From positions 45,223 to 109,222 of the forward strand of contig CAVTUQ010000029.1 of assembly GCA_963737905.1 (NCBI GenBank): a stretch of DNA of 64,000 nucleotides, read 5' to 3'. Both the position numbers and the translations under genes were made by a program. Below the pieces are notes generated by a model. It was not told the DNA's origin. It ran no database searches and saw only the letters and a list, made by a program, of their open reading frames with translations. This stretch comes from an uncultured delta proteobacterium (lineage in GTDB: Bacteria; Desulfobacterota; Binatia; UBA9968). Shown here piece after piece: positions 6,045 to 60,490 of the stretch (position 1 is the stretch's first letter; the number at the start of each line of letters is the position of its first letter).

Positions 6045-6089
6045 AGCCACTCCGTGTTGTGCGCCGACCGCTACAAAACTCCAGTCCGA

Positions 6090-7217: not shown

Positions 7218-7265
7218 ACCTGTGGTGAGCCCTTCGCCTAGGCTCAGGATAAACTCTGTCGATCC
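7218..7265. repeat. REP-like hairpin element(s) inserted into a heptamer repeat
   Basis: CCTGTGGTGAGC-[CCTTCGCCTAGGCTCAGGATAAAC]-TCTGTCGATCC is absent from the paralogous intergenic region at ~5064-5094. Confidence 0.7.
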
Positions 7266-7280
7266 ATCGGCAATCTAAAA

Positions 7281-17468: not shown

Positions 17469-17574
17469 TCGGTAACGCTACAAAAAACGTGACCGTCCTT
17501 TCTCCCGCACCGCCTTGAATCAGTTTCTATTTTAGATGGGCACGAATTTCACCTGGAGGAGTTCACATCAAGCC

Positions 17575-18639: not shown

Positions 18640-18702
18640 CGACTCACAGTGCGGTTCGATGTTTGGCCGGGAGGTCATGACCAACGAAGCTAGGGAGGCC
18701 CG

Positions 18703-19731: not shown

Positions 19732-19798
19732 TCCCGGATGAAGTTGAGCAGCGGGAGTAAGTAATGGGATATGGCGATCAATTGAAAGGAGGGCGGGG

Positions 19799-20860: not shown

Positions 20861-20998
20861 AAGATTGTTTGACACGAATTGTCGAGCGAGGATAGTCTCG
20901 CTTGTGCGTGGAGCGTTAGGATAGCCAATCCGCACTATTCATATTGTTGACCGAGTAAGCATCGTAGCGAGCAGAAACAGGCGGTGGTGGGCGATCCC

Positions 20999-22036: not shown

Positions 22037-22105
22037 ATAGCGGCCGGCTGTCCGTCACAAGCCGGCGCCGCGAAGACCAAACACGGGATTTTGGGAGATC
22101 TGATC

Positions 22106-22963: not shown

Positions 22964-23003
22964 ACACGCGGCGTCTGCGATTGACAGCGGACAGAGAAAT
23001 TTC

Positions 23004-23552
23004 ATGAAACGACCGTGTCGCTGCCTTTGCTGGGTTGCGTTCCTTTTGTTCCTGACGATTGTTTCACCGTTGTCGGCCAATCCTCGACCCGGATGTTGGC
23101 TATGGAAACAAAATCCGTGGAAGCCACGATTTTTCCTCCTCCTTGGAACTTTCGACTCAGACAAGAAAGGATTTAAGGAATTGGCATTCGCCGGCGAGCA
23201 TGTCACCGAGCCCTTTGTTGGCATTGCAACCAGCGTCGAAAAAATCCAAAGCAACCCAACCCAGGTCAAAAAAATGTTGCGCGTCTTTCTACATCGTATG
23301 AAAGCGATAACAGAGCGAAAAGAAGCGGCAGGATTTATCGCCCGTAGCTATAGGTTGGAACCGGAAATCGCCGCGGAGATGTACGAAACGACCTTTCGAA
23401 CCTTGACGAAAGACGGCACGTTGGACCAGGGAGTCTTGCGGGATTTCGTGAAGGTCGTCAAAGAAGAGGTCGGGGTCACCAAGAACGTGGCGGTGGCGGA
23501 GGTCGCGGATTTCAGTCTCTTGAGCGAAGCGTTGAAGGAGACGGGAAACTGA
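23004..23552 (+). pseudogene. Internally deleted, frameshifted NitT/TauT-type SBP
   Basis: Signal peptide (PLSA), then RMLAMETKSVEATIFPPPWN in another frame, then KGFKELA...VADFSLLSEALKE; N-terminal lobe missing. Confidence 0.7.
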
Positions 23553-23658
23553 CGCGCTCCTGGCTGCAAGGCCACCATTCAAGAAACCATGGGTCGCTTA
23601 CATAGACGTTTGCTAAGTCCCGCTAGTGGAACGAAGCGTCAAAGAAGTGGAACGGAGA

Positions 23659-24666
23659 ATGTCGAGAAGATTTTGCGGCGATAAGACAAAGAGACTGGCC
23701 GCGCTCTTTCTATGGTTCATTATTTTCCCTGCTCGGCTTCCGGCAGAACCGATCCGTACGGTGGTGCCACAATCGAGCCTCAACTATCTTTCCGTCTATG
23801 TTGCAGAGAGCAAAGGATTCTTTAATCAGGAAGGTCTCGAAAACGAAACCCTCGTGCTGGCGGGACCCGTAGCGGCGGCCGCTCTAATTAGCGGCAGTGT
23901 CGATTTCGGTGGTGGCGGCGGGAGCGCGATGCGTGCTGCGGCGGGCAGCGGAGCGCCGTTGAAGGCGATTTTCTTCCAGACCGACACGGTCACGTTTTAT
24001 CTGGTCACGGACACGAGCATCGTCAAACCGGCCGATCTCAAGGGGAAGAAAATCGGCGTCGGAGGCATTGGCTCCAGCCAGGATCGCATCATCCTTAAAT
24101 ACATCGAACAAGCCGGATTATCATCAAGCGATATTACGCGCATTGCCATGGGCGCTGATGCTGGACGGCGCATTCTTGCGATCAAGACAGGATCGATTCA
24201 CGCCACACTGCTTGACCCCGGCACGCTCAGCTTCGCGGAGCAAGAAGGGCTCAATGTTCTGGCTTTCATGGGCGACTTGTTTCCGTTTCCTTTTCAAGTT
24301 TTTGCAACCACGGACAAAAAACTAAAAGAGAACCCGGAACAGGTGAAGCGGTGGCTCAAGGCGATGGCCAATGCGTTGATGTTTATCCGTGATCGACCGG
24401 AAGAAGCAGCGGAAGTCGGGATCAAACGACTTCGGGTCGGCGCTATCACCAAAGCCGCCATGCTCGGCGGCATCAAACGCTACACCCGGGCCGTGGCATC
24501 GGGCGTGCCAGGGCTGCCGTCCAGCGAAGGGATTAAGAACGTGATCGAATACGAGGTCAAACTTCCTCTGAAGATTGATCGGGAAATAGCGCCAGAGAGC
24601 CTCATGAATCTCAAGCTCATCGCTGAGGTAAAGGCAGAACTGGAAAGCAAGAGAACGCCACGATGA
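23659..24666 (+). CDS. NitT/TauT-type solute-binding protein
   Basis: Signal peptide; KGFFNQEGLENE, DLKGKKIGVGG. Confidence 0.88.
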   Translation: MSRRFCGDKTKRLAALFLWFIIFPARLPAEPIRTVVPQSSLNYLSVYVAESKGFFNQEGLENETLVLAGPVAAAALISGSVDFGGGGGSAMRAAAGSGAPLKAIFFQTDTVTFYLVTDTSIVKPADLKGKKIGVGGIGSSQDRIILKYIEQAGLSSSDITRIAMGADAGRRILAIKTGSIHATLLDPGTLSFAEQEGLNVLAFMGDLFPFPFQVFATTDKKLKENPEQVKRWLKAMANALMFIRDRPEEAAEVGIKRLRVGAITKAAMLGGIKRYTRAVASGVPGLPSSEGIKNVIEYEVKLPLKIDREIAPESLMNLKLIAEVKAELESKRTPR

Positions 24667-24681
24667 GGAGAAGAGAACGTC

Positions 24682-25662
24682 ATGATTTCAAAGATCGCTC
24701 CGCCGCAAATCCGTGCCATCACCGGGCTAGAGCTTGCCGCGGGTGTGTTCACCAAGTGTTCGGATGAACTGGCGAGCCAGCTCACGGTCTCGCTGAGTTC
24801 AGGCAACCGAGAATCCGGGCAAACCCCGTTGCGCATCGGCATTAACGGCGATGTCTATGGCGGCATGAGAGCGCCGGTGGAGGTCGGCACGAGACGCGTG
24901 GATATCGCTTATGTCAATCCGTCCGCGATGGTGACTATGGCTTACCGGGGGAAAGGTTACTACAAACAGAAAATGGCGCTGCGGGTCCTGGGTTCGTTTC
25001 CGTCCTGGGATCGAATCGCCATCGTTGTCTCCAAGGATCTCGGAGTTAAATCGTTGCACGACATCCGGCGGCGAAAGATACCATTGGATGTATCCACGAG
25101 GTTCTCGGGCGTGGACAACGCGACCTATTACACGATCTCGACGATTCTTTCATTCTACGGGCTCTCTTTCGAGAAGATCAAGCGTTGGGGCGGACAAGTG
25201 CAGGAATGCCCGCGACCGTTCGCTCCGGAGCGCCTTAGGGGCATTGCGAAACGTTCTATCAATGCGGTGTTCGATGAAGGGGTGAGCACGGTCGGGGGCT
25301 GGTTGGATCAAGCGCTCGAAAGCGGCTACGAGATTCTTTCGCTGGAACCGGAGATCGTGAAGAAGTTAGAGGAGATGGGCTATAGCAAAGCTCTGCTGCC
25401 AAAGAAGCGCTACCGGCAATTGAGAGAGGACGCTTTGACCATCGACTTTAGCGGCTGGTCTTTGGTGACTCATCGATGGCTGCCAAACCGTGTGGCCTAT
25501 GCGGCGGTGGAAACTATCGACGAGAGGAAAAAAATGATTCCGGTGGATGATGACAAGCCGCTCGATATGAGAAATCTATGTCGCAGCACGGAAAAATGCT
25601 CGTTGCAGATTCCGCTGCATCCGGGCGCGCTCAACTATTACAGGAAAAAAGGGTATCTGTAA
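24682..25662 (+). CDS. TAXI-family (TRAP) solute-binding-like protein lacking a signal peptide
   Basis: VKSLHDI, C-terminal IPLHPGALNYYRKKGYL typical of TAXI. Confidence 0.7.
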   Translation: MISKIAPPQIRAITGLELAAGVFTKCSDELASQLTVSLSSGNRESGQTPLRIGINGDVYGGMRAPVEVGTRRVDIAYVNPSAMVTMAYRGKGYYKQKMALRVLGSFPSWDRIAIVVSKDLGVKSLHDIRRRKIPLDVSTRFSGVDNATYYTISTILSFYGLSFEKIKRWGGQVQECPRPFAPERLRGIAKRSINAVFDEGVSTVGGWLDQALESGYEILSLEPEIVKKLEEMGYSKALLPKKRYRQLREDALTIDFSGWSLVTHRWLPNRVAYAAVETIDERKKMIPVDDDKPLDMRNLCRSTEKCSLQIPLHPGALNYYRKKGYL

Positions 25663-26990: not shown

Positions 26991-28910
26991 CTATTTCCCT
27001 GCGCCAGCCGAGGATTTGAGGCGCCGAACATCGCCGATTCTAATGGTCAGGCCCTCGCGATCAAAATATTCCAATAGGGGGATCGTGTACTTGCGGCTGG
27101 AACCGATAAGATCGCGAAATGATGCGGCAGCAATCTCACCTTTTTCAGAGAGAAATTTCTTGAGAACAGCCCTCACCCGATCGACCGTGCTCGATAGATA
27201 ATAGAGATCGCTCGTCACTCGAATTACAGATCCGTCTCGTTCCAATAACCGGATGACCTCAGTCAACTTGTTACGGTTGACGCCGAGCTGCTTTTCGATC
27301 TCCTTCAAGTCCGGCGGTGACATCGGTTGCTCGCCGAGGATCTTCTTGATTCCGTCCATGAGGGATTTTTCCTGGCCGCCGAGCTGGACCCGATGTTCCG
27401 CTGTGCGCAGCAGATTCTCTTCCTTGGCGATGGCCTTGTCCGAAATGAGAGCATCCACGACAGCGCGAAAGATCTTCGCCGAGAGCGTGTACGGGAGTTT
27501 TCCGCGCAATTCCTCCATGTCCATTCCTGGTACAAGAGCATGCGTTTTGTGGAATTCCTTCAATGTGACGAGGATCGTGGCCTTCAACCGCTGCCCTTTG
27601 CTGTCGGTCGTGTAAACTCGTTCGCCCTCTGCATTGAAAGCGCGAAGACTTTCGATCTTATCGAGTTGCGCTTTTACCACCTCTTCGTGCAGGTTTAAGA
27701 ACTGTTGGATCGATTCCATGGGTAGAGCAAAGTCACCGCTTTCGTTTAGAAAGCTCTCGGTGAGTTGCGTCACGTCCCCCAGATGCAGCGATTTCAGACG
27801 GTTTTTTAGGTTAGGCTCTCTGCGTTTATGCTTACTTGCCCAGGGATGGATGACGACCCCGCCGCCGAGTGTTTTTCTCGCCGTCTCGTCGCGGATAATA
27901 AAATGATCGTTGCGCAGAGCCAGCAGAGGCTCGGAAAGCGTGATTTGACAGTACGTCGACTCCTTCGGACCGACCTTGTCCTCGGCGCCCAGAAGGATGA
28001 TCTTGGCAAGCCGTTCTGCGGTGCCAAGGTGCACTCGGATTCGCTGATGATTTTTGATTCCCTTTGCCGCTGCTGGTCTGACTTCCAAAAATGCATCGAA
28101 TCGGTCCGACGTTAGAGTGAGTTTCTCGTGACAGATGACGTGTCCCCGTTCGATTGACGCTCGCTCCGGCCCGCTCAAGTTCAGGGCTACCCGCTGGCCC
28201 CATCCCGCCGTGTCCACCGAACGACCATGCACCTGCAAGCTGCGCACGCGAAAAAGCTCGCCTCCGGGCAAACAACGCACACGATCGCCGGTTTGAACTT
28301 CGCCGCTGAGAGCGGTTCCCGTGACGACGACGCCATGTCCTTGCATTACGAAGGCACGGTCCACGGGGAGTCGAAAGTAGCCGCTCGGGACGGACTTGCC
28401 GGTGCTCTTCAGTGTCCGCGAAAGTAAATCCTTTAACTCCGTGAGTCCCTGTCCGGTCACCGACGATACCGCAACAATCGGAGCATCCTCCAACACAGTG
28501 CCAAGGGTAAGAATTTTGATTTCTTCTTCGATCTCCGGGATTCTCTCGGGAGAAACCAGATCGACTTTGGTAATAGCGAAGATCGCCATCTTCACGCCGA
28601 GCAGGTGGACGATATCCAAGTGTTCTTCGGTCTGGGGCATGACGCCGTCATCGGCGGCGACGGTGAAGAGAACCAAGTCGATGCCGTGCGCCCCGGCGAG
28701 CATGTTTTTGATGAAGCGCTCGTGCCCGGGAACGTCGACGACGCCCGCTTGCGTTCCATCCGGTAGATCGAGATGAGCAAATCCCAGATCGATGGAGATG
28801 CCGCGCTCTTTTTCCTCCTTCAGGCGGTCCGTATCCTGTCCCGTCAGTGCTTTGATCAGGCTGGTTTTTCCGTGATCGATGTGGCCGGCGGTGCCGATGA
28901 TGTAGGGCAT
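26991..28910 (-). CDS. selB: Selenocysteine-specific elongation factor
   Basis: [44 protein letters not shown]-terminal [13 protein letters not shown] winged helix. Confidence 0.97.
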
Positions 28911-29067: not shown

Positions 29068-30471
29068 CTACGAGGGCTCGGCCCTGTTTAAATTCGGGAC
29101 CAGCTCCTGAGGATCGAAGATGGTTCTCAAGTCGAGGAGGAAACGGTCGTCCTTGATTCTGCCGATGATCGGGGGATTTGCGTCTCGAAATTTCTTTCCG
29201 ATTGCCGCGGCGGTCAGCTTGGCGTGCCCGATGGCAATGACGACGGTGGGCAGTTCTTCCGTGGGCAAGGCGCCGCTGCCGATCTGAGAAGTGGAGTCTT
29301 CCAGCACAAGACGAAAGCCCTCTCCCAATACGGCTTGAAGCTTTGGCAACATAGCGTCGCCGAACTCGCGGATCTCATCAAGAGGACGGGTGAAGGCCCG
29401 CAAAGTTGGAATCGCCTGAGTGATGTCCGGCGATTGGCGGTAAAGTCTCAGAGTCGCCTCCAACGCGGCTAGAGTCAATTTGCCGCAACGCAAGGCTCGC
29501 TGCAGGTGATTCTTGTTGATTCGCTCGATCCACTCTCGGCGGCCGACCATCAGTCCCGCTTGCGGGCCGCCGAGAATCTTGTCACCGCTAAAGGTAACGA
29601 CGTCGGCGCCGGCGCGAATGCGTTCAGAGACGATCGGTTCTTTCGGCAGGCCATACCTGCTCAAATCGATCAACGCGCCGCTGCCCAGATCTTCCATTAC
29701 CGGAACGTTGTGCTTCTTACCGATGGCGACCAGCTGATCGAGAGTCACTTCGGAGGTGAAGCCCACGACTTTGTAGTTGCTCGCGTGCACTTTTAGCAAT
29801 AGCGCCGTCTGCTCATGAATTGCGTTTTCGTAGTCCGCCGGATGGGTGCGGTTGGTGCTGCCGACTTCTTTCAAAATCGCGCCGCTTTTAGCCATGACCT
29901 CGGGTATGCGAAAAGCGCCGCCGATTTCAATCAACTCGCCCCGGGAAACGATCACTTCCTTACCTTGGGCGAAGGTGTTCAACCCAAGGAGAACCGCCGC
30001 GGCATTGTTGTTGACCACGGTAGCGGCTTCCGCTCCGGTCAGATCCACAAGGAGTTGCTGGATCATTTCTTCACGCCGGCCGCGTTTGCCGGCCGCCAGA
30101 TCATACTCCAGGTTAATCGGGTAGCCGGCCACCGCCGTCATGGCATCGATCGCCGCTTGGGGCAGCAAGGCGCGACCTAAGTTGGTATGGAGGATCGTGC
30201 CGGTCGCGTTGACCACACGAACGTGACCCGGCACACTGTCGGCGCGGATGGCGGCCTCCAGTTTTTGGATGACCGCTTCATCGTCAAGGTCGCCGGGTGG
30301 AAGCCCCGCGTCTTGTCTGATTTCAGCCCGCAGCTGGTCGAGGACCTCGCGACATTTTTGCGTAACGTAATCACGATTGTAGCGAGTTAGGAGAGCTTCA
30401 CAGTGGCCATGCTTGAGAAGACGGTCGACAGATGGAATTTCGCGCAATAAATTTGTCACGGGTTCGGTCAT
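29068..30471 (-). CDS. selA: L-seryl-tRNA(Sec) selenium transferase
   Basis: VNATGTILHTNLGRA, VVNNNAAAV, SRGELIEIGGAFRIP, EDLGSG, FSGDKILGGPQAG. Confidence 0.97.
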   Translation of the reverse strand: MTEPVTNLLREIPSVDRLLKHGHCEALLTRYNRDYVTQKCREVLDQLRAEIRQDAGLPPGDLDDEAVIQKLEAAIRADSVPGHVRVVNATGTILHTNLGRALLPQAAIDAMTAVAGYPINLEYDLAAGKRGRREEMIQQLLVDLTGAEAATVVNNNAAAVLLGLNTFAQGKEVIVSRGELIEIGGAFRIPEVMAKSGAILKEVGSTNRTHPADYENAIHEQTALLLKVHASNYKVVGFTSEVTLDQLVAIGKKHNVPVMEDLGSGALIDLSRYGLPKEPIVSERIRAGADVVTFSGDKILGGPQAGLMVGRREWIERINKNHLQRALRCGKLTLAALEATLRLYRQSPDITQAIPTLRAFTRPLDEIREFGDAMLPKLQAVLGEGFRLVLEDSTSQIGSGALPTEELPTVVIAIGHAKLTAAAIGKKFRDANPPIIGRIKDDRFLLDLRTIFDPQELVPNLNRAEPS

Positions 30472-30634: not shown

Positions 30635-31612
30635 ATGCGGAGAACAGAACTCTGGACTTCGTTAGCTCTTGTCGGATTTCTATTCATAACCTCTTCGTTG
30701 GCAGCTCAAGAGGGGCTGAGAAAGGTGAGAATCGCCTATCCCAGCAATACGATTTGTTGTCTCCCTTTGTTTGGCGCACTCACTTGGAAGGTCTTCGAGG
30801 CGAACGGCCTGCAAGCGGAAATCATTCAGGTCAGGTCTCAGCTCGCCTACCCGGCAATGAGCAGCGGTGAGGTGCCCTATGTCGCCGGGGTGGGTCCTGC
30901 ATCCATAAGCGCGACCCTGAGAGGGATGCAGTCCAAGGCGGTTTGGTTCGCCACCGAAGAGTTGATCTATTCGGTAATCGCCCGCCCCGAGTTTCAAAAT
31001 ATAAAGGACCTCAGAAACAAGAAAATCGCCCTGACGGGCCTCGGCGGAACTTCACATGTCGCCCTGCAAATCTCCCTGGAGGCCGTGGGTGAAAACCCAA
31101 AAAACTTCGTCTACATCGGCATGGGCGGCGCGCAGTTATTGGCGGCATTGGAGAGTGGCACGGTGGAAGCTGCGCTGCTCAGTCCTCCGATGTTATACTT
31201 CGCGAAGAAAAAGGGGTTTAGAGAATTGCTCGACGTCGGCTCACGAGCTAAAATGCCGCTCGGCGGACTTACGGTGATGAATTCGACGATACGGAACCGG
31301 GGCGACGAGCTGAAAAGGGTGATTAAATCCATGCAGGCGGCGAAGCAGGAAATTCTCAGGTCGAAAGAAAAAAGCGTGGCGATGATCGCAAGCTTTCTAC
31401 AGGTGGATCGAGACGTGGCGGAAGATACCTACCCGATCTACCGAAAAACGGTCAGTGGCAACGGCGTGCCGACGCACGAGGGTATAGACCAGATCATAAA
31501 GTCGCTCCAGGCCGCGGGCCAATTCACGGATCGAAAGGTAACGTTTGATGAGGTCGCCGACGACCGCATCGCTAAAGAGGTTGCGAGGGAGCTTGGATAC
31601 AAAATCCAATAA
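30635..31612 (+). CDS. NitT/TauT-type solute-binding protein
   Basis: RBS AAGGAGG; signal peptide; KVRIAYP, KDLRNKKIALTGLGGTS; paralogue of 58380. Confidence 0.9.
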   Translation: MRRTELWTSLALVGFLFITSSLAAQEGLRKVRIAYPSNTICCLPLFGALTWKVFEANGLQAEIIQVRSQLAYPAMSSGEVPYVAGVGPASISATLRGMQSKAVWFATEELIYSVIARPEFQNIKDLRNKKIALTGLGGTSHVALQISLEAVGENPKNFVYIGMGGAQLLAALESGTVEAALLSPPMLYFAKKKGFRELLDVGSRAKMPLGGLTVMNSTIRNRGDELKRVIKSMQAAKQEILRSKEKSVAMIASFLQVDRDVAEDTYPIYRKTVSGNGVPTHEGIDQIIKSLQAAGQFTDRKVTFDEVADDRIAKEVARELGYKIQ

Positions 31613-38455: not shown

Positions 38456-38746
38456 ATGAGTAAGAGAACGATTTGCCTTGCTCTAAGCGCTTTGCTCTTT
38501 GCACTTTGCTCGTCCGTCGAGGCACAGCAACCAGCGAACGTTCCGCGCATAGGCTTCATCAGTGCTACACCGATTTCCGCTATCCAGGCCCGCATCGAGG
38601 CATTCCGGCAGGGATTGCTCCAGGTCGGGTACCAGCAGGGGAAAAATATCTTCATCGAATATCGAGATGGTGAAGGAAAACCGGATCATATCCCGGTACT
38701 CGCGGCCGAGTTGGTGCGTCTCAAGGTAGACGTTATCGCCAGTTAA
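38456..38746 (+). pseudogene. ABC_sub_bind array unit 1: 3'-truncated
   Basis: Signal peptide-AQQP-RIGF...AAELVRLKVDVI, then a stop inside a CAGTTAA heptamer repeat. Confidence 0.85.
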
Positions 38747-38801
38747 CACTGGACAATGGCCGGTTATCAGTTGGAAGAATAAGAGGAGTGAAAATGATGA
38801 A

Positions 38802-39789
38802 ATGGAAAAATCGCTTATCTGCTTACTGGCAACTCTCTTGCTGATAACTGTTTCGTCCGTCGGAGGCGCAGCAGTTACCGACGAAAGTCGCCCGGATAGG
38901 ATTCCTATCATTGCTGTCATCCCCGTCCGCTGCCGCGGCCCGCACGGAAGCTTTCCGGCAAGGTCTGCGCGAGCTTGGTTACGTTGAGGGGAAAAACATC
39001 GTCATTGAGTCGCGATATGCAGAGGGAAAACTCGATCGCCTTCCAGCGCTCGCGGCCGAATTGGTGCGTCTCAAGGTAGACATCATCGTCACGGCCGGTG
39101 GGCAAGCAACCCGCGCCGCCAAGGAAGCAACCCCTACGATTCCTATTGTCATGACGAACGATCCCGATCCCGTTGGCTCCGGGTTCGTCGCCAGTCTCGC
39201 GCGGCCTGGTGGAAACATTACTGGCTTGTCCACGCTTGCCCCGGAGTTAAGCGGAAAACGACTGGAGCTTCTCAGAGAGGTCGTCCCTAAGCTCTCTCGC
39301 GTGGCCATCGTCGGGACTTCAACCCAACCGGGCCACGCGCAAGCGATAAAAGAGCTGGAACTCGCCGCAAAGTCGTTCAAGGTGCAGATTCAATATTTAG
39401 ATGTTTTAGAGTCCAAGGATATCGAAACTGCATTTCGAGCCGCAGCCAAGGGGCGGGCTGACGGAGTCCTCACGCTAACGAGCCCCATCCTCCGTTCTCA
39501 GCGAGCACAGCTTGCAGACCTTGCGGTAAAGAACCGGATCCCCGCGATATACAACGACATCCAGTTTGTAGAAGCCGGGGGACTTATCTTCTACGGCGTG
39601 AGCTTTCTCGACTTGGACCGCCGCGCCGCCACGTATGTCGACAGAATTTTAAAGGGCGCCAAACCTGCTGATCTCCCCGTGGAGCAACCCACCAAGTTCG
39701 AGTTCATCATCAATCTGAAAGCCGCCAAGCAGATCGGCCTGACGATTCCGCCGAATGTGCTGGCGCGAGCGGACAAGGTCATAAGATGA
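38802..39789 (+). pseudogene. ABC_sub_bind unit 2 (frameshift near 38860; possibly a sequencing error)
   Basis: Leader MEKSLICLLATLLL is out of frame with body ORF 38911-39789, which ends [14 protein letters not shown]. Confidence 0.75.
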
Positions 39790-39837
39790 CGAAGGGCCAA
39801 GCGCAGAGAGCAAAGAGCAAGAAACGGGAGAAACCTG

Positions 39838-40829
39838 ATGCGAAGAAACGATATTGTTTTTACGCTTAGCGCTATGCTCTTTGCGCTTTGCTCATCGCGC
39901 CGAAGCGCAGCAGCCGAAGAAAATCCCTGCGATCGAATACCTAACCGCTATCCCTCGTACCTCGCTCGGCGCAGCTCCCCGCATCGAGGCCTTCCGGCAG
40001 GGGTTGCGCGAGCTTGGTTACCTAGAAGGGAAAAACATTTTCATTGAGTGGCGATGGGCAGCGGGAAAACAAGATAGTCTGCCCGGACTTGCGGCCGAGC
40101 TCGTTGAGTCTCAAGGTAGACATCATCGTCTCAGGTGGTTCGACGGCAACCCAGGCCGCCAAGGATGCGACGAGCACGATTCCCATTGTCATATCGCAGG
40201 ACAACGATCCTTTGGCGAACAGGTTTGTCGCCAGTCTGGCCCGGCCCGGTGGAAACATCACCGGTCTGGCTACACTCAGATCTGAGGTGAGCGGAAAACA
40301 CATGGAGATCCTTAAGGAGATCGTTCCGAAGCTCTCCCGCATCGCCGTGTTGGGAACTTCGAACAATCCGGGCAATGCCCAAGCGCTAAAAGAAATTGAA
40401 CTCGCCGCTGATGCGCTCAATGTGCAGCTGCAAATCCTCGACGTTCTGCTTCCCAAAAACATCGAGGTTGCATTTCGCACCGCAATCAAGGGGCGTGCCG
40501 ACGGCATCCTCGCACTGGCGAGTCCCGTTTTGAATTCCCATCGAACCCAGGTTGTCGATCTCGCGGTCAAGAGCCGCCTTCCGGCGATCTATGACAGGCG
40601 AGAATTTATCGATGCCGGGGGGCTGATGACTTACGGCGTGAGCGTCGTTGATATGGACCGACGCGCTGCGGTCTTTGTCGACAAAATTTTGAAAGGCAGA
40701 ACTCCGGCCGAACTTCCGGTAGAGCAGCCAACGAAGTTTGAATTCATCGTCAATCTCAAAGCCGCGAAAGCGATCGGCTTGATGATCCCGCCGAACGTGT
40801 TGGCGCGTGCGGACAAAGTAATTCGGTGA
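39838..40829 (+). pseudogene. ABC_sub_bind unit 3 (two frameshifts)
   Basis: Homologous segments split over ORFs 39838, 39854 and 40044. Confidence 0.75.
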
Positions 40830-40889
40830 GAAGTAAAAAAATGAGACGTAAATAAAACGGAGAGCGCGGGCAAAATCGGGGGAGCGAAA

Positions 40890-41873
40890 ATGATGCGTAG
40901 ACAAATCTTTGTTTGGTTACTGACCACTTTGTTACTGGCAACTGTTTCCGCCCACGCGCAGCAGCCGGCGAAAATTCCGCGAATTGGCTTTGAGTCCGAC
41001 TCACCGGTGACGTCAATTGCCGCGCGAGTCGATGGATTCCGCCAGGGTCTGCGCGAGCTTGGTTACGTCGAGGGGAAGAACATTTTAATCGAGTGGCGCG
41101 CCGCAGAATTGAAGCCCGAGCGGCGCAGCGAGATCGCTGCCGAGCTGGTGCGTCTGAAAGTCGATCTTATCGTCTCGGCTGGGCCGACGATAACGCGCAC
41201 TCTGAGGGAAGCGACGACGACGATACCGATTATTATGGCGCAAGATACCGATCCAGTTGGCAGCGGCTTCGTTGCAAGCTTGGCGAAACCCGGAGGTAAC
41301 ATTACGGGTTTTTCCGCTCTCTCACCGGAGATGAGCGGCAAACAATTGGAACTCATGAAAGAAATCATCCCCAAAATCTCGCGTGTAGCGGTGATTGGCA
41401 ATTCGACCAATCCCGGTGACGCACAAGCACTGCGTGAGACTGTGCTAGCGGCGGGTGCATACGAAATCTATCTGCGATACCTGGAGGTCCAAGATGCCAA
41501 GGATGTCGAGCCGGTGCTGCGCTCCGCCGTCAAGGGGCGCGCCGACGCACTCATAGTGCTGGGCAATCCGATCCTCAATCGCAATCGTCAACAAGTTGTC
41601 GATCTTGCCGCCAAGCTCCGCTTACAGGCGGCGTACGCGCGACCTGAGTTTGTCGAGGCGGGTGGTCTGATGACTTACGGCACCAACTATCCCGAACTTT
41701 TCCGTCGCGCCGCTACTTATGTCGACAAAATATTAAAGGGCGCCCAGCCCGCCGATCTGCCCGTTGAACAACCGGAGAAGTTTGAGTTCATCGTCAATCT
41801 GAAAGCGGCAAAGCAGATTGGACTTACGATTGAGCCCAACGTGCTGGCGCGGGCGGATCGGGTGATTAGATGA
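40890..41873 (+). CDS. ABC_sub_bind unit 4 (intact)
   Basis: Signal peptide AHA-QQP; full motifs through [13 protein letters not shown]. Confidence 0.92.
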   Translation: MMRRQIFVWLLTTLLLATVSAHAQQPAKIPRIGFESDSPVTSIAARVDGFRQGLRELGYVEGKNILIEWRAAELKPERRSEIAAELVRLKVDLIVSAGPTITRTLREATTTIPIIMAQDTDPVGSGFVASLAKPGGNITGFSALSPEMSGKQLELMKEIIPKISRVAVIGNSTNPGDAQALRETVLAAGAYEIYLRYLEVQDAKDVEPVLRSAVKGRADALIVLGNPILNRNRQQVVDLAAKLRLQAAYARPEFVEAGGLMTYGTNYPELFRRAATYVDKILKGAQPADLPVEQPEKFEFIVNLKAAKQIGLTIEPNVLARADRVIR

Positions 41874-42001
41874 AAGCGCTACGCGTGTTCCAATGGTTTC
41901 AAACGTTCGAATGGTGTTAGTACGGATTGGACAAACGCGTTGCGAGAGCGTGAAGCGGTGAGTGGAGGCCTGTCATTGTAAAGCAAACCCGGAGGGAACC
42001 G

Positions 42002-42982
42002 ATGCCGACACATGTTTTTCTCATTGTTTTAACCTTTGTCATTGCGCTTAGTCTCCCCGCCCAGGCGCAGCAGCCGGCGAAGGTCCCGCGGATCGGATAC
42101 CTGAGTGGCGTTTCCCCTGCCGCAGAAGCCGCGCGCCGCGATGCGTTCAACCAGGGGCTGCGCGAGCTAGGCTATATCGAGGGCAAGAGCGTCGTCGTCG
42201 AATATCGCTATTAGGGGGAAAATCGGATCGCCTCGCTTCGTTGGTGGCGGAGCTGCTGCAGCTCAAGCCGGACATCATCGTCACCGGCGGCAGTCCGTCG
42301 ACGCGCGCCGCCAAGGCGGCGACCGCCACGATCCCTATTGTGATGACGAATGATCCCGATCCCGTAGCCAACGGATTAATCGCTAGCCTGGCGCGACCAG
42401 GTGGCAACATCACGGGATTATCCACTCTCGCTCCGGAGCTGAGCGGCAAAAGATTGGAGAAATTAGGAGAAGTACGTTCCCAATCTTTCTCGCGTCGCCA
42501 TCCTCGGGACCTCGACGAGCCCGGCCTACCGGCCCGTCAAGAAAGAGATCGATCTAGCCGCTAACGCTCTCAAGCTTCAGCTTGACTACCAAGACGTGTT
42601 GGATTTTAAGGATATCGAGTCTGCCTTTCGAGCCGCGGTCAAAGGGCGCGCCGACGCAGTCATGACACTCAACAGCGGGATCCTCAATTCCCAGCGAAGC
42701 CAGATCGTAAACCTCGCGGCAAAGCATCACTTTGCCACGATTTATACCCAGGCCGAATTCGTGGAAGTTGGCGGGCTGATGTTCTACGGCGTGAACCTGG
42801 TCGATCTGTCGCGCCGCGCCGCAACCTATGTCGACAAGATTCTCAAAGGCGCCAGACCTGCCGACATTCCTGTCGAGCAAGCAAAGAGGTTCGAGTTCAT
42901 CATCAATCTAAAGGCAGCGAAGCAGATCGGTCTGACGATCCCGCCCAACGTGCTGGCGAGAGCGGACAAGGTCATAAGATAG
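42002..42982 (+). pseudogene. ABC_sub_bind unit 5 (several indels)
   Basis: Segments in ORFs 42002, 42241 and 42596. Confidence 0.8.
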
Positions 42983-43029
42983 CAAAGGGCCAAGCGCAGA
43001 GAGCAAAGAGCAGAAACGGGAGAAACCTC

Positions 43030-44014
43030 ATGCGAAGAAACGATATTGTTTTTACGCTTAGCGCTATGCTCTTTGCGCTTTGCTTTTCCGCTCAGGCGCA
43101 GCAACCGACGAAAGTCGCCCGGATAGGATTCCTACTTGCTGTCTCCCCGTCTGCTGCCGCGGCCCGCACGGAGGTTTTCCGGCAAGGTCTGCGCGAGCTT
43201 GGGTACGTGGAGGCGAAAAACATCGTCATTGAATCGCGATATGCAGAGGGAAATTTCGATCGCCTCCCGGCGCTCGCGGCCGAACTGGTGCGTCTCAAGG
43301 TAGACATCATCGTCACGGCCGGCGGGCAAGCAACCCGCGTCGCCAAGGAAGCAACCCCTACGATTCCCATTGTCATGACGAACGATCCCGATCCCGTTGG
43401 CTCCGGGTTCGTCGCCAGTCTCGGGCGCCCGGGTGGAAACATTACTGGCTTGTCCACGCTTGCCCCGGAGTTAAGCGGAAAACGACTGGAGCTTCTCAGA
43501 GAGGTCGTTCCTAAGCTCTCCCGCGTTGCCATCGTCGGGACTTCAACCCAAGCGGGCCACGCGCAAGCGATAAAAGAGCTGGAACTCGCCGCAAAGGCGT
43601 TCAAGGTGCAGATTCAATATCTAGATGTTTTAAAGTCCAAGGATATCGAGACTGCATTTCGAGCCGCAGCCAAGGGGCGGGCTGACGGATTGCTCACGCT
43701 AACGAGCCCCATCCTCCGTTCTCAGCGAGCACAGCTTGCAGACCTTGCGGTGAAGAACCGGATCCCCGCGATATACAACGACATCCAATTTGTGGAAGCT
43801 GGGGGACTTATCTTCTACGGCGTGAGCTTTCGCGACTTGGACCGGCGCGCTGCAACTTACGTGGACAAGATTCTCAAAGGGCGCTAAGCCCGCCGATCTT
43901 CCGGTCGAGCAACCGACGAAATTCGAGTTCATCATCAATCTGAAAGCCGCCAAGCAGATTGGCCTGACAATCCCGCCGAATGTGCTGGCGCGGGCGGACA
44001 GAGTCATTCGGTGA
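43030..44014 (+). pseudogene. ABC_sub_bind unit 6 (single +1 frameshift at AAAGGGCGCT, ~43880)
   Basis: ORF to 43887; the conserved tail [16 protein letters not shown]...ADRVIR* continues in another frame to 44014. Confidence 0.75.
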
Positions 44015-44068: not shown

Positions 44069-44467
44069 TCACACAATACCCGACGCAATCGGCTCGAACG
44101 TCACTCTACGGGCGTGGTCGTTGAAACAAACCTCGAACTGGTTGAACACTCCGGTTCGGCCGAGAAGATTAAATCCAACACCGAGCCGCTCAGAGAAACC
44201 GATCGGCGCCGTAATTTGCGTGCCGCCGATTTGGACTGGAAGATCGTGAATAAAAGTAGGAATATAGCTCCCGTCGCCAACCACGATCATCTGATGCCTG
44301 CCCGCGCGCCAATCGATACCGATGCGTGCCGCTTCATCGACGTTCAGCATGCTAAACGTCGCCCCAGAGTCAACAAAAACCCAGAGCCTGTGGGCATGGA
44401 TGGAGATGGGTACAATGGGCATCAAATAGCCCCGGTGACGCGTGTAAGGAAATTCTATAGCAGGCAC
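44069..44467 (-). CDS. Retropepsin-like aspartyl protease
   Basis: FVDSGATFS catalytic motif and LLGR motif; 132 aa. Confidence 0.88.
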   Translation of the reverse strand: MPAIEFPYTRHRGYLMPIVPISIHAHRLWVFVDSGATFSMLNVDEAARIGIDWRAGRHQMIVVGDGSYIPTFIHDLPVQIGGTQITAPIGFSERLGVGFNLLGRTGVFNQFEVCFNDHARRVTFEPIASGIV

Positions 44468-44664
44468 GCCATGTCCTCTTCCCGCGGGACACGAAGCACG
44501 GATGGCATCTTGTTAGGTTCAATCTCACGCGCCTTGCTCTCCACTTCTTTTCCGGAATCCCCAACGGCCACCAAAGTCTCATTTACCACGGCGACATACT
44601 TTCCGGCATATTTCGTCACCAGCTCGCTGAAGTGGTCGACAATCCAAAGATCGTCTTTATCCAT
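44455..44664 (-). CDS. DUF5678-like small protein
   Basis: 69 aa; KYAGKYVAVVNETLVAVGDS; overlaps the protease start; upstream TTGACT-18-TAGAGT (44732-44703). Confidence 0.75.
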   Translation of the reverse strand: MDKDDLWIVDHFSELVTKYAGKYVAVVNETLVAVGDSGKEVESKAREIEPNKMPSVLRVPREEDMACLL

Positions 44665-44775
44665 CGTCTTTTCCCTTCTGCTCCAGACACTTTTCGACCT
44701 TAACTCTAAATTGTCTGCGGTCTGCGAGTCAACCTTATCTCGGGTCAATTGTAGCGATTTGATCGGGGTGAGTCC

Positions 44776-45768
44776 ATGAAGAGAACTATCCTGATTTTGG
44801 CATTCGGTTTTATTCTTATGATCGACTTCGTTTCCGCCGACGCGCAGCAGCCGAAGAAAGTCACCCGAATTGGGTATCTATCGTCGCAAGACCCAGCTTA
44901 TGAGTCTGCCCGTGCCGAGGGGATTCGGCTGGCACTTCGCGAGCTCGGCTACATGGAAGGACAGAACATCGCCATCGAGTATCGGTATTCGGAGGGGAAG
45001 ACCGATCGGGCTTCAGAGCTTGCGGCCGAGTTGGTGCGTCTCAACGTCGATATTATCGTGGTAGCAGGAGGGATCATATGGATCAGGGCGGCCAAGAATG
45101 CAGCCAAGTCGATTCCCGTCGTCATGGCGGGCATTGGAAACGACCCTGTCGAAGCAGGCCTGATTGAAAGCCTTGCCCGTCCAGGCGGCAACGTCACAGG
45201 TCTTACAAACCTTACGGGAAAATTGGCTGGCAAGCGGCTGGATCTCCTCAAAGAAGCTGTTCCCAAGCTTGCCCGTGTCGCGGTTCTTTACCAACCCGCC
45301 ACTCCGGCTAATGTGCTCGAGGTAAACGAGGATCTTCCAGTTGCGTCGCGTGTTCTGAAGTTGACGGTTCAGCCTTGGGAGGTACGAGCTGCGGAGGGTT
45401 TTGACGGGGTATTCGATGCGCTAAACAAGCAGCGCCCGGATGGACTCTACGTGGCGGGCAGCCCGCTCACAAATGCTAACCAAAAACGGATCGCGGGATT
45501 GGCATTAAAGAGCCGGTTACCGTCGGTGTTTGCCGAGAGAGGAGCTGTAGACGCCGGTGGGCTCATGTACTACGGGGCGGACCTCGCAGACAGCTACCGG
45601 CGCGTCGCCTATTACGTGGACAGAATCTTGAAGGGCGCCAAGCCGGCTGATTTGCCTGTTGAGCAGCCAACGAAGTTCGAGTTGGTGATTAACCTCAAGA
45701 CCGCGAAGCAGATCGGCGTAACGATTCCGCCGCAGCTGCTCGCCCGGGCGAGTAGGCTCATCAAGTGA
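44776..45768 (+). CDS. ABC_sub_bind unit 7 (intact)
   Basis: Signal peptide ADA-QQP; family motifs; variant tail IPPQLLARASRLIK. Confidence 0.92.
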   Translation: MKRTILILAFGFILMIDFVSADAQQPKKVTRIGYLSSQDPAYESARAEGIRLALRELGYMEGQNIAIEYRYSEGKTDRASELAAELVRLNVDIIVVAGGIIWIRAAKNAAKSIPVVMAGIGNDPVEAGLIESLARPGGNVTGLTNLTGKLAGKRLDLLKEAVPKLARVAVLYQPATPANVLEVNEDLPVASRVLKLTVQPWEVRAAEGFDGVFDALNKQRPDGLYVAGSPLTNANQKRIAGLALKSRLPSVFAERGAVDAGGLMYYGADLADSYRRVAYYVDRILKGAKPADLPVEQPTKFELVINLKTAKQIGVTIPPQLLARASRLIK

Positions 45769-46786
45769 GAAGGGGTGACAAAGTGGATCGAGGCATAGAA
45801 AAATACACGAAGAAAAAAGTCACGGTCGTTATTCTTTGCGCCATGCTCTTTGCGCTTTGCCCGCCCGCCGAGGCGCAGCAGCCGAAGAAAATCCCACGGA
45901 TAGGTTACTTGGGTGCCTTCACCCCTTCCGCTGGCGCCTCCCTCCTTGAAGCTTTCCGCCAAGGGCTGCGCGAGCTTGGCTACGTGGAGGGCCGGAAGAC
46001 TTCATTGATTACCGCTGGGCGGAGGGAACGCCCGATCGGTTCCCAGCCCTTGCCGACGAGCTGATCAATCTCAGGGTAGACGTGATCGTTACACAGAGCA
46101 ACGCAGCGGTGGCAGCTCTTCAGCAGGCGACCCGAACCGTACCCATCGTCGTGGCGGGTATGGGCGATCCTGTTGAGAGCGGCTTCGTCGGCAGCCTCGC
46201 GCGGCCGGCCGGGAACATTACCGGCTTCTCAAATCAAGCCGAAGAGGTCGCAGGCAAATGGGTGGAGCTACTCAGGGAGGCCGTGCCCAAGATTCCCGCA
46301 TCGCCGTCCTCGCAGTTTCCCAGACCTCGTCCCACCGCACCTATTGGGCACAGATCCAAGCGACGGCCCAAGCGTTGAAGGTGACTCCCCAGCGCCAAGA
46401 GGTGGTGGGACCGGACGAGATCGAGCACGCCTTCGCGAACCTCACCAAGGGCCATCCCCAGGGGCTCATCGTACTGCCGCATGCTGTCACCATCGAACGT
46501 CGAACGCAGATCGTGGACCTGTCAGCAAAGAACCGGCTGCCGGGGATGTACCCCTTTAGCTTGTTGTGGAGTCCGGTGGCCTCATGTCCTACGGGACGAA
46601 CTTGGCTGACCTGCACCGGCGGGCCGCCACCTACGTGGGCAAGATTTTGAAAGGCGCGAAACCCGCAGACCTTCCGGTCGAGCGGCCAATAAGTTCGATT
46701 TCATCATTAATCTGAAAGCGGCCAAGCAGATCGGTCTCACGATCCCACCAAATGTACTGGCCAGAGCTGACAAAGTAATTCGATGA
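45765..46786 (+). pseudogene. ABC_sub_bind unit 8 (multiple indels; ACG at the probable start)
   Basis: Segments in ORFs 45765, 46082 and 46258; tail [26 protein letters not shown] ends at 46786. Confidence 0.8.
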
Positions 46787-47805
46787 AACATCGCAAAGCG
46801 CCTGCGGAGAAACGCCGGAGAAGTCATGGGAGAAAAGTCTTCATTGGCTTAACGCTCGGCGCCTTGCTTTTTGTCTTATGCCCATGCGCCCATGCGCAAC
46901 AGCAAGCCAGGATACCTAAGATCGGCTGGCTCTCAGCCCGCCGCGCTTCAAACACTGGCCAAGAAATTATCGTCCGTATGCTGCGTGACCTCGGCTACGT
47001 TGAAGGCAAGAACGTAGTTTTCGAGTATCGATTCGCGGATGATAAGCTCGACCGGCTTCCCGCCCTTGCCGATGAGTTGGTCCGCCTCAAGGTCGATGTT
47101 CTCCTCACGCCCGGAACTCCCGGCGCCCTAGCTCTAAAAAAAGCTACCCGGACTATCCCCATCGTTTTTTTAGACGCCACGGACCCCGTTGCGGCTGGAC
47201 TGGTTGATAGCTTAGCTCGACCCGGGGGAAACATCACGGGGTTCAGCAGCATCGAGGCAATGTTGGCTGGCAAACGTCTCGAGTTACTCAAGGAAACCGT
47301 TTCGAAAATTTCTCGGGTTGCGGTCCTGTGGGATCCTCGGAATCCAGCCTCTATACAGGAATGGAAAGAGAGCCAACTCGCGGCCCGGGAACTCGGCCTG
47401 CAACTTCATTCTATGGAAGTAAGCAGCGCCGACAAATACCAGGACGCGTTCAAAGAGGCCATCAGGGCGCGTAGCGGCGCTCTTGCCGTGTTGTCGACCC
47501 CATTGGCCTCTTCCAATCAAGACCAGCTCGCGGAGCTGGCGGCGAGAAATCGGTTGCCGGCGATTTACGTCCAGGGAAGTTTTATTATCGATGGAGGTTT
47601 GATGTCCTATGGACCCGACCGCACCGAACGCTACAGGCGCATAGCGGTTTTTGTCGACAAAATTCTCAAAGGTACAAAACCAGCCGATCTCCCGGTGGAG
47701 CAGCCGAACAAGTTCGAGTTCATCATAAATCTCAAAGCCGCAAAGCAGATCGGATTAACAATACCACCGAATGTATTAGCCAGAGCTGACAAAGTAATCC
47801 GATGA
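46783..47805 (+). CDS. ABC_sub_bind unit 9 (open frame; exact start uncertain)
   Basis: AHA-QQQ, GYVEGKN, SLARPGGNITG, conserved tail. Confidence 0.88.
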   Translation: MKHRKAPAEKRRRSHGRKVFIGLTLGALLFVLCPCAHAQQQARIPKIGWLSARRASNTGQEIIVRMLRDLGYVEGKNVVFEYRFADDKLDRLPALADELVRLKVDVLLTPGTPGALALKKATRTIPIVFLDATDPVAAGLVDSLARPGGNITGFSSIEAMLAGKRLELLKETVSKISRVAVLWDPRNPASIQEWKESQLAARELGLQLHSMEVSSADKYQDAFKEAIRARSGALAVLSTPLASSNQDQLAELAARNRLPAIYVQGSFIIDGGLMSYGPDRTERYRRIAVFVDKILKGTKPADLPVEQPNKFEFIINLKAAKQIGLTIPPNVLARADKVIR

Positions 47806-49103: not shown

Positions 49104-49190
49104 GCACCGCGAAGGCGCGGAGGACGCGGAGTAAAGAGTTCTTGATTAAAAAATTCTCCGATCTCTGCGAACTCGGCGCCTCTGTGGTGA
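49104..49190. repeat. CACCGCGAAGGCGCGGAGGACGCGGAG ... CTCTGCG..CTCTGTGGTG inverted 9-bp-period repeat
   Basis: Direct reading of the two arms. Confidence 0.7.
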
Positions 49191-49240
49191 ATACTTTTTC
49201 ACAGAAAACCCGGAACAACCTTTTTACTAAGGAGGATCCT

Positions 49241-50233
49241 ATGAAGGCAATGATTTTGGCAATGAGCCTGGTTACCTCGATTTCTTTTTGCACCGCCGTC
49301 TCGGCTCAGCTCACTAAAGTGATCATCGGCAACAACACGCTCAGCACCAACGGTCTTCCCGCGTGGATGGCCAAGGAAGCCGGGATATTTCGCAATAACG
49401 GCCTCGATGTCCAGATCGTCTATTTCCGAGGAGGAACTATTACGGCCATGGCTTTGATCGCCCGCGAGACTCCGATCAGCCAGGTTTCCGGGCCGCCGAT
49501 CGTGAGCGCTGCTCTCAAGGGAGCCGACGCGGTCATGGTTGCAGCCGGCAACGTGGTCTCAGAGTATTGGCTCATGAGCAAGCCCGAGCTCAAGACCGGC
49601 GCGCAGCTCAAGGGAGGCTCGGTTGCCATCGCTACCTTCGGTGGCTTGTCCGATTCTCTCTCTCGGGTTGCGCTTCAGAAGCTTGGATTGAATCCTGTGA
49701 AGGATGTCACCCTCGTGCAGATCGGAACGATCCCGGAGCGCTTGAGCGCGTTAGAGTCGGGAAAGGTTCAGGCCGCGATGCTCAACGCACCCGACAACTT
49801 CCGGGCCCAGAAAAGAGGGCTGTATAAATTAATTGAGGTGCGCCTTCCTTACCAGGGCATCGGGGTGGGAACGACGCGCACATTCATCAGGGAAAATCCC
49901 GACGTTGTCCGGCGCTATGTCAAATCTCAGGTCGAAGCCGTTCACCGCCTCAAGACCGACCGGGAAGGAGGAATCAAGGTATTGGGGAAATATCTCAACA
50001 TACCGGACCGAGAGGTCCTGGAAAGAGCCTACGATGACGCAATTACTGATGAGAAATTTCCCCCAAAACAGTACCCGAGCCTGGAGGGAATCAAAAAGAT
50101 TCTCGAACCGCTGGCGGAGACGGACCCAAAAGCAAAAGCCGCGAAACCCGAGGACTTTGTCGATATGCGCTTCATTAAGGAACTGGACGACAGCGGTTTC
50201 ATCGACGAGCTTTACAAGGGCAGGAAACGTTAG
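49241..50233 (+). CDS. NitT/TauT-type solute-binding protein
   Basis: RBS AAGGAGG; signal peptide; WMAKEAGIFRNNGLDV, PEDFVDMRFIKELDDSGFI. Confidence 0.9.
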   Translation: MKAMILAMSLVTSISFCTAVSAQLTKVIIGNNTLSTNGLPAWMAKEAGIFRNNGLDVQIVYFRGGTITAMALIARETPISQVSGPPIVSAALKGADAVMVAAGNVVSEYWLMSKPELKTGAQLKGGSVAIATFGGLSDSLSRVALQKLGLNPVKDVTLVQIGTIPERLSALESGKVQAAMLNAPDNFRAQKRGLYKLIEVRLPYQGIGVGTTRTFIRENPDVVRRYVKSQVEAVHRLKTDREGGIKVLGKYLNIPDREVLERAYDDAITDEKFPPKQYPSLEGIKKILEPLAETDPKAKAAKPEDFVDMRFIKELDDSGFIDELYKGRKR

Positions 50234-59390: not shown

Positions 59391-59466
59391 CTATGGCATA
59401 TAGCCTATGGCTTATAGCTTATGGTTCGTACAGCCGGCCATACGCTATATGCGATCAGCCATATGC
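59391..59466. repeat. Inverted 7-bp-period repeat (CTATGGC/TATAGC ... CCATA/GCTATA)
   Basis: ctatggcatatagcctatggcttatagcttatgg ... ccatacgctatatgcgatcagccatatg. Confidence 0.7.
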
Positions 59467-59500
59467 GATTTTCGCTCGCGTAGCAAGAAAGGAGAGTGGG

Positions 59501-60490
59501 ATGGCAAACAAAATTAGGCTGGCGTTCGCGGGGGGTGATTACGAGATCATCCGCGCTCTGAAGGAAGGTTCCGTCGACGTTGACGGGATCGAGCTGGTCG
59601 TGTTGACCGCCCATGGGCCGCGCGAGCGTCATTGGCGCATGGCGCGCAACCTCGAATACGACGTTTGTGAATTCAACGTCGGTGCCTATTTCATGGCGCG
59701 GGCCCGGAACGTGGCGATCACTGCGATTCCGGTCTTTCTCCACCGCAGATTTCGTCACGGGTTTGCTTTTGTCAATGTAAACTCCGGCATCAAAACGCCA
59801 AAGGACTTGATCGGCAAAAAAGTGGGCGGCACAAACTTTCAGCCGGCGGGCAACATTTGGCTGCGGGGAATTTTGGAGGAGCACTACGGCGTGCCGCACA
59901 AGGACATAACCTGGGTCGTCGATCGCAGCGAAGACGTCGAATTCACGCCGCCGCCAGGATTGAAGATCGAGATGATTCCGCCCGGCAAGTCGATGGATAC
60001 CATGCTAGCGGAAGGCGAGATCCCGGCGATGATCAATCCTTATATACCGAGGCCCATCGTCAATGGCGATGCGCGGGTCACGCGACTGTTTCCGGAGTAC
60101 AAACAAGTCGAGCGTGAATACTTTCAGCAAACGGGTATCTTTCCGATCATGCATGTGACGGTGATCAAGCAGGAGATCGTCGACAAATATCCCTGGGCCG
60201 CGGTGAGCTTGGTTAAGGCTTTCGAGAAGGCCAAGCAAGTTTGTTATCAGCGGGTGGTCAACCCAAGAATTGTCCCACTCGCGTGGTTTTCGCACCAATG
60301 GAACGAAGAGCGTAAGGTTCTGGGACCCGATCCCTGGGCCTACGGTCTCGGCGAAGCGAACAGAAAAAATCTCGCTACCATTATGCGCTATTGCCATCAA
60401 CAGGGGCTGATCGACAGAGAGAGGTCCATCGAGGAGCTATTTGTCGACACTGATCCAGGCGACGCCGGCGGCGACGAAGGCCACTATTGA
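59501..60490 (+). CDS. 4,5-dihydroxyphthalate decarboxylase-like SBP-fold protein
   Basis: GDYEIIRALKEG, DVCEFN, RRFRHGF, IFPIMHVTVIK, DPWAYGLGEANR; RBS AAGGAG. Confidence 0.85.
   Translation: MANKIRLAFAGGDYEIIRALKEGSVDVDGIELVVLTAHGPRERHWRMARNLEYDVCEFNVGAYFMARARNVAITAIPVFLHRRFRHGFAFVNVNSGIKTPKDLIGKKVGGTNFQPAGNIWLRGILEEHYGVPHKDITWVVDRSEDVEFTPPPGLKIEMIPPGKSMDTMLAEGEIPAMINPYIPRPIVNGDARVTRLFPEYKQVEREYFQQTGIFPIMHVTVIKQEIVDKYPWAAVSLVKAFEKAKQVCYQRVVNPRIVPLAWFSHQWNEERKVLGPDPWAYGLGEANRKNLATIMRYCHQQGLIDRERSIEELFVDTDPGDAGGDEGHY

Follow-up and report, generated by a model that had tools for sequence, protein, structure and literature searches.

A binding-protein gene with a C-type leader and a B-type body: mosaic units in the PF04392 tandem arrays of an uncultured Binatia bacterium

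The tandem lpl cluster of Staphylococcus aureus carries a conserved region within its open reading frames (ORFs) that is a site of recombination, and the evolving unit there spans two ORFs (Tsuru and Kobayashi, 2008; PMC2568036). In Firmicutes, strings of non-identical tandem paralogues of type VII secretion system (T7SS) immunity genes are reported to be reshaped by homologous recombination (Garrett et al., 2022; PMC9484751). We analysed a stretch of 64,000 nucleotides (the window, in whose coordinates all positions are given) from an uncultured delta proteobacterium of the Binatia (assembly GCA_963737905.1, contig CAVTUQ010000029.1, positions 45,223 to 109,222). The part from 38.4 to 47.8 kb is a head-to-tail array of ~1.03-kb units on the plus strand, which are paralogous PF04392 genes for ATP-binding cassette (ABC) substrate-binding proteins (SBPs). 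Unit F of this array is a true recombinant of four parts: a spacer and signal peptide of the unit C type, a body that is sister to that of unit B, and a junction of ~16 nt and a 3' tail of its own.

The source genome is a metagenome-type assembly of 6.7 Mb in 46 contigs, 87% complete and with 6.7% contamination. It contains 127 PF04392 matches, and a DNA profile search recovered 139 family pieces, of which 77 are near-full; these 77 units (2926 pairs) underlie the family-wide statistics for this genome. From 5' to 3', a unit is built of a short spacer, a leader of ~23 codons with an A-x-A end, a mature part starting at QQP and a strongly conserved C-terminal tail. As read in the translations, the leaders have a hydrophobic core followed by A-x-A/QQP, a putative export signal. 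The Pfam scores of units B, D, F, G and I for PF04392 range from 135 to 187 bits (cut-off 25.9). The units that take part in the mosaic are as follows.

Unit B, 38802-39789, plus strand: leader out of frame with the body.
Unit B leader, 38802-38866, plus strand: MEKSLICLLATLLLITVSS... (MEKSLICLL...), unrelated to that of C/F and not in frame with the B body.
Unit B body tract, 38867-39617, plus strand: 95% identical to unit F 43097-43841; leader and body put out of frame by three small indels at 38880-38921.
Unit B tail, 39618-39789, plus strand: conserved C-terminal segment up to the stop codon; no B-F-specific similarity in 39617-39690.
Unit C leader block, 39790-39892, plus strand: spacer of 48 nt and 55 nt of leader coding sequence; native to C and the near-identical partner of 42983-43084.
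Unit C, 39838-40829, plus strand: two frameshifts, near 39897 and near 40104; body 69% identical to the F body.
Unit F leader block, 42983-43084, plus strand: spacer and leader, near-identical to the unit C block.
Unit F, 43030-44014, plus strand: one surplus base; premature stop at 43885-43887.
Unit F junction, 43085-43104, plus strand: signal-cleavage codons S-A-Q-A/Q-Q-P, in F's own sequence, where the C-like part gives way to the B-like part.
Unit F body tract, 43097-43841, plus strand: 95% identical to the unit B body; ratio of non-synonymous to synonymous divergence (dN/dS) 0.18 and synonymous divergence (dS) 0.124 over 229 codons.
Unit F tail, 43842-44014, plus strand: from neither B nor C (nearest paralogues 0.83); a surplus base at ~43870-43881 shifts the frame and leads to the stop at 43885-43887.

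Alignment of C 39767-39892 with F 42960-43084 gave 121 identical positions out of 126, with four mismatches and one gap, and the next-best match to this block in the 6.7-Mb genome reached 75-78%. Identity is complete over the final 62 nt (39831-39892), a stretch that takes in the whole leader-coding sequence of 55 bases. Both units encode the leader MRRNDIVFTLSAMLFALC, followed by S in unit C and by F in unit F. The spacer and signal peptide upstream of the F body are a copy of those of unit C, or were copied into unit C. The body of F belongs elsewhere: B 38867-39617 and F 43097-43841 share 95.0% identity over 744 aligned columns (0.60 outside the tract), and the next-best body in the genome is at 77%. 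The leader blocks of B and F are only 0.54 identical, and the bodies of C and F 69%. The B-F codon differences comprise 20 synonymous and 11 non-synonymous changes. In a triplet test with 330 informative sites, B-like sites numbered 225 of 241 inside 43093-43985 and 8 of 89 outside it; the maximum chi-square of 223 was matched by none of 300 permutations. The body tree joined B with F (support 100) and the leader-block tree joined C with F (support 97.9).

The switch within F could be placed closely. The exact match to C ends at 43084 and a 31-nt exact match to B starts at 43104; sites specific to C extend to 43091, and the run of B-like sites opens at 43093. The two parts are separated by ~16 nt of F's own sequence (43085-43100). 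The original prediction, made from this DNA alone, had described the near-identity of the two leader blocks and of the bodies of the 43105-on and 38802 units, the different leader on the latter and a breakpoint at the AQQP cleavage codons, all of which are borne out by these measurements. It had also proposed incongruent histories for leader and body, and the two trees do disagree. Its extension of the B-F likeness to the end of the gene holds for the body only, the B-like tract stopping at ~43841-43845. Similarly, the proposed swapping of modules between paralogues stands for the mosaic in F and fails as a reciprocal exchange, B and C having retained their own arrangements.

Both limits of the body tract lie at islands of conservation. 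Among the 77 units, mean pairwise identity peaks sharply at 0.74 in the AQQP window (43091-43105) and forms a plateau of 0.71-0.77 in the tail (43856-44000), while the windows flanking both islands are mostly at 0.34-0.70. The C-like tract extends from the tail or the stop codon of the preceding unit to the AQQP peak, and the B-like tract from this peak to ~43841-43845, where the tail plateau begins. Between 43841 and 43900 the B-F identity is 0.73-0.77, compared with a family median of 0.72-0.76. The AQQP region and the 3' tail, suggested at the outset as the two conserved anchors of recombination or gene conversion, are therefore real peaks of conservation across the family. Within the AQQP peak, a 9-nt core, GCGCAGCAG (43096-43104, Ala-Gln-Gln; nearly always GCG CAG CAG), is conserved at silent sites. 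The Ala codon is GCG in 66 of 75 cases, against 36% genome-wide, and CAG outnumbers CAA by 65:10 and 58:12 at the two Gln codons, against 58% CAG genome-wide. Such conservation could stem from the core having repeatedly been part of conversion tracts, or from a DNA- or RNA-level constraint.

The remaining members and interruptions of the array are listed below.

Unit A, 38456-38746, plus strand: 5' fragment only, with leader MSKRTICLALSALLFALC... and ~70 codons, cut off at 38746 (from the ORF list; the nhmmer match covers model positions 75-405 only).
Unit D, 40890-41873, plus strand: intact, PF04392 protein of 327 aa.
Unit E, 42002-42982, plus strand: split into three frames; its tail end precedes the unit F leader block.
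Two small genes interrupting the array, 44069-44748, minus strand: retropepsin-like aspartyl protease (44069-44467) and DUF5678 protein (44455-44748).
Unit G, 44776-45768, plus strand: intact, 330 aa.
Unit H, ~45789-46780, plus strand: broken; its body and that of a unit on contig C7 (405835-407035) share 95.6% identity.
Unit I, 46783-47805, plus strand: intact, 340 aa.

The abrupt end of unit A after ~290 nt, with the unit B leader starting 55 nt further on (38746-38801), has the appearance of a deletion junction within the array. The last 100 nt of the unit B tail are 83-90% identical to the unit E tail. The DUF5678 and retropepsin-like genes overlap; lying between units F and G in the opposite orientation, they look like an insertion in the array. 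Unit D matched the solved structures 3lkv, 3lft and 6hni over nearly its whole mature length (E from 1.9e-35 to 1.6e-22), and close homologues are named in public records as putative tryptophan/tyrosine transport system substrate-binding proteins.

Many units are broken. No ATG-initiated ORF of at least 300 aa was present in 29 of the 77 near-full units, some of which have other start codons, and the other 48 look intact. Sequencing error was considered as a cause of the frameshifts and rejected: the indel contexts are mostly not homopolymers and the neighbouring non-family genes are full-length Pfam matches, which indicates decay rather than read error. Birth, exchange and decay thus shape the evolution of the family.

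Throughout the family, the history of the leader block is separate from that of the body. Across the 2926 pairs, leader-block identity and body identity were uncorrelated (Spearman rho 0.026), whereas the correlation of tail with body identity was 0.46. All nine pairs with leader blocks at least 0.80 identical had bodies of 0.50-0.74, and all 49 pairs with bodies at least 0.80 identical had leader blocks of 0.76 or less. Shared tracts were listed by a scan on the multiple alignment; a BLAST listing at 87% identity or more omitted the C-F leader tract, probably by extension into lower-identity flanks. Relative to AQQP, eight of nine leader tracts have their end between -20 and +24 nt, and six of 11 body tracts have their start between +2 and +19. 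The body tract shared by unit H and the contig C7 unit has the same limits as that of B and F, again with unrelated leaders (0.56). Unit H is a decaying copy relative to its C7 counterpart, with four 1-nt deletions and one insertion, and the C7 copy is interrupted only close to its very end. Copies of one body type, 80-88% identical, occur in many arrays on contigs C2, C7, C8, C19, C27, C29 and C33 with unrelated leaders, mostly in broken units, and this type looks like a recently spreading body cassette.

The same independence was found outside the source genome. A second, independent genome from a relative (G031; 47 units, 140 kb) gave a rho of 0.04 for leader against body and 0.45 for tail against body, and three leader-sharing pairs with bodies of 0.59-0.64, one of which includes the orthologue of unit C. 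Among 120 public protein homologues of unit F, those with 85-96% mature identity carry many unrelated leaders; 75% of pairs 0.90-0.95 identical in the mature part (n=88) and 36% of pairs at 0.95 or above (n=45) have unrelated ones. The leaders of proteins at least 0.85 identical to F fall into well over ten types, and several of these types are found on other bodies of the source genome as well. In a search of 89 other family genomes, a hand tally of the first 50 matches listed for unit F from outside its own genome counted 23 that begin no more than 7 nt from AQQP; three of those rows come from an unpublished genome (G006).

The relatives also bear on the direction of the change. Only the C-D pair has a clear orthologue there: in G031 it is 78% identical over 2.1 kb, with spacer, leader and body collinear, and the alignment starts right at the unit C spacer (39792) and runs through a homologous leader into the C body. 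C thus shows the ancestral arrangement, and the mosaic is F. Neither B nor F had a copy above 84% DNA identity among 30 relatives and the 89 other family genomes; in the latter the best match to unit F was at 84%. Environmental homologues of the B/F body carry leaders of both the C/F type and a B-like type, so F may already have had a similar leader that was later homogenised with that of C. In this one genome B, C and F all persist, and F retains its own tail and junction. The unit D orthologue in G031 (L021 3001-3984) is frameshifted after ~170 codons; decay of units is therefore not peculiar to the source genome.

We consider that the F mosaic probably arose by recombination or gene conversion between non-allelic paralogues, with tracts bounded by the two homology islands. 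The route would be interlocus gene conversion or crossing-over. With the variable parts at ~55% identity, pairing and re-annealing would be limited to the A/QQP codons and the conserved C-terminal tail. Exchange tracts bounded by these two islands would let leader block and body act as separate cassettes, and selection has probably sharpened the pattern, a junction between leader and mature part keeping both parts functional. In B-C the two partner tracts lie side by side over roughly one unit length (38867-39892), and in F their order is circularly permuted, so a single gap-repair event templated on that segment may have sufficed. The perfect identity of the 62-nt leader segment next to a spacer with five differences in 48 nt hints at a separate, later conversion. 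Simple reintegration of a circle with one crossover was rejected as a route, the first tail segments of F (0.73-0.77) and E (0.73-0.80) not being B-like.

Several observations sit uneasily with this account. Approximately unbiased (AU) tests rejected neither alternative clade (C+F on body columns, p 0.18; B+F on leader columns, p 0.125), which we attribute to long, poorly placed branches and the low power of the tests. The AQQP island is short, and the exact B-C match in it is only 9 nt, below the homology lengths quoted for RecA-type recombination in the lpl report (PMC2568036); exact resolution there would need microhomology annealing, or selection on the products. One tract (C2:251818 vs C2:255186, from -254 to +221) ignores the anchors, and four body tracts begin off-anchor, at +50, +88, +308 and +480. 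No donor above 0.83 was found for the F tail segment 43845-43920 in this 87%-complete genome. Conservation of the tail is mostly at the amino-acid level (third-position identity 0.47 in the tail vs 0.38 in the body), leaving little sign of homogenisation there. Linkage of a body to the leader of the next unit, the lpl pattern, is weak (rho 0.156, compared with -0.05 for a body and its own leader; 561 pairs of 34 units, the pairs not being independent). The best public sequencing run contained 0.10 of the sampled words of the stretch, and no junction-spanning reads were found in such runs; contigs from four runs are short and stop at 43094-43105 and at 43843, none bridging the junction. They stop where family-shared sequence begins and so neither support nor refute the joins.

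That last point touches on the possibility that F does not exist as written and is a false repeat join or a polishing mixture of paralogue reads. The metagenome-type assembly, with its 46 contigs, 87% completeness and 6.7% contamination, gives some ground for it, as do contig ends inside family units (C25, C41 and C42 at their starts, C31 at its end); these four ends show that the assembly breaks at the repeats, and more units may be missing. A few run contigs lack one base at 39897, 43876 or 43879, and were not used because they may come from other paralogues or organisms. Each of the 41 31-mers that cover the F junction (43060-43130) occurs just once in the genome, however, as do the 21-mers starting at 43065-43103, and the B-C junctions share only 9 nt and so offer no common word for a graph switch. 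The ~5% difference between B and F is spread along the tract with a coding signature (dN/dS 0.18), the boundaries coincide with gene landmarks, and the pattern recurs in G031 and in proteins of numerous other assemblies. Two soil runs yielded short contigs that match the F body with 2-6 differences per piece, without crossing the junction. Given the unique junction words and the mostly synonymous B-F differences, we regard an assembly error as highly improbable. Signal peptides and spacers evolve faster than mature parts, and B and F might accordingly be young duplicates with fast leader divergence and no recombination, the C-F likeness being due to ancestry or convergence. Many body pairs at 0.80-0.88 with leaders near 0.5 would fit such plain duplication. 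It is nevertheless strongly disfavoured and would be most surprising: a 95% body with a 0.54 leader block is beyond rate differences alone, the C-F tract covers non-coding spacer at 121/126 identity with bodies at 69%, and the nine leader-sharing pairs have bodies of only 0.50-0.74.

More elaborate explanations invoke a programmed process. Core and tail could be the joints for a specific enzyme, with broken units as the stock of donor sequences, on the pattern of pilin or vls variation. The silent-site conservation of GCGCAGCAG, the recurrence of tract limits, the 29 of 77 near-full units without a long ATG-initiated ORF and the presence of the young body type (80-88%) on many contigs, mostly in broken units, point in this direction. 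A scan of the 30 larger window ORFs outside the array, however, revealed no recombinase, transposase or integrase. The family lacks a single expression site; a start codon and a leader of their own are present in most units, and 48 of the 77 seem intact; a dS of 0.12 makes the exchanges old rather than ongoing switching, and some tract limits lie off the anchors. A dedicated cassette-exchange mechanism thus finds little support, and we think it very unlikely to account for F. Also unlikely, in our estimate, is a broader scheme in which leader block and mature body are separately exchangeable cassettes joined at the DNA-level conserved 9-nt core at the signal-peptidase site, an arrangement that would persist because export or regulatory modules can then be paired anew with binding specificities across ~90 units, with the broken units as donor reservoir. 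Recombination or gene conversion between the homology islands remains the explanation we prefer.

The window is rich in other binding proteins, with about eleven NMT1/THI5-like, one TctC and one phosphonate-type gene (3937-8240, 17536-25662, 30635-31612, 49142-50233 and 59393-60490). These are interleaved with genes for hydantoinase A/B, CoA-transferase and Rieske oxygenase, and no membrane transporter occurs among the scanned ORFs; in particular, neither a permease nor an ATPase was present in the 30 larger ones outside the array. PF02653 permease matches number nine in the whole genome, and two of these loci lie near other arrays, on contigs C7 and C22. Genes for SelB (26991-28910) and SelA (29068-30471), the selenocysteine machinery, adjoin each other on the minus strand.

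The unit of evolution in these binding-protein genes is not the ORF; two modules meet at the signal-peptide cleavage site. The pattern extends over 77 near-full units of one genome, 47 units of a second one and 120 environmental proteins. Phylogenies and orthology assignments for this very abundant family of soil proteins will be misleading if leaders are left untrimmed, and clustering by full-length identity separates mature proteins that are nearly identical. Roughly one third of the units are in decay, so that gene counts overstate transport capacity. The arrays also provide a natural data set on the minimum length of a homology island that bounds recombination tracts.

Large expansions of binding proteins are known from Bordetella, where the Bug/TctC 'orphan' solute receptors comprise dozens of binding-protein genes with very few membrane components. 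The present genome is similar in its 127 PF04392 matches against nine for the PF02653 permease, and differs in fold family. We know of no report of leader/body mosaicism in Bug/TctC proteins, for which no search was made. In the literature on PF04392, Binatia, solute-binding proteins and gene conversion, we found no description of such mosaicism in binding proteins. Variation of the pilE/pilS or vlsE type involves one expression site, silent promoterless cassettes and a dedicated signal or enzyme, whereas the units of this array have their own starts and leaders. The T7SS immunity paralogues differ in protein family and in biology, which is toxin immunity (PMC9484751).

The closest precedent is the S. 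aureus lpl cluster (PMC2568036). Both systems are tandem genes for secreted proteins with a conserved stretch inside the ORF between variable parts, and in both the 5' and 3' parts of the ORF have incongruent histories. The lpl models of unequal crossing-over, apparent conversion, and circle excision and reintegration also fit the permutation of 38867-39892 (B-C) relative to 42983-43841 (F). In lpl the 3' part, the intergenic stretch and the next ORF's 5' part move as a unit; here that linkage is weak (rho 0.156), and the leader block is independent of both neighbouring bodies. The present family has two anchors, one of them ~15 nt at the cleavage codons, compared with one 132-nt region in lpl. 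Its members are ABC binding proteins of a free-living uncultured soil lineage, with 77 near-full units over many arrays. The process is thus of a known kind, operating here in a new family and at a striking scale.

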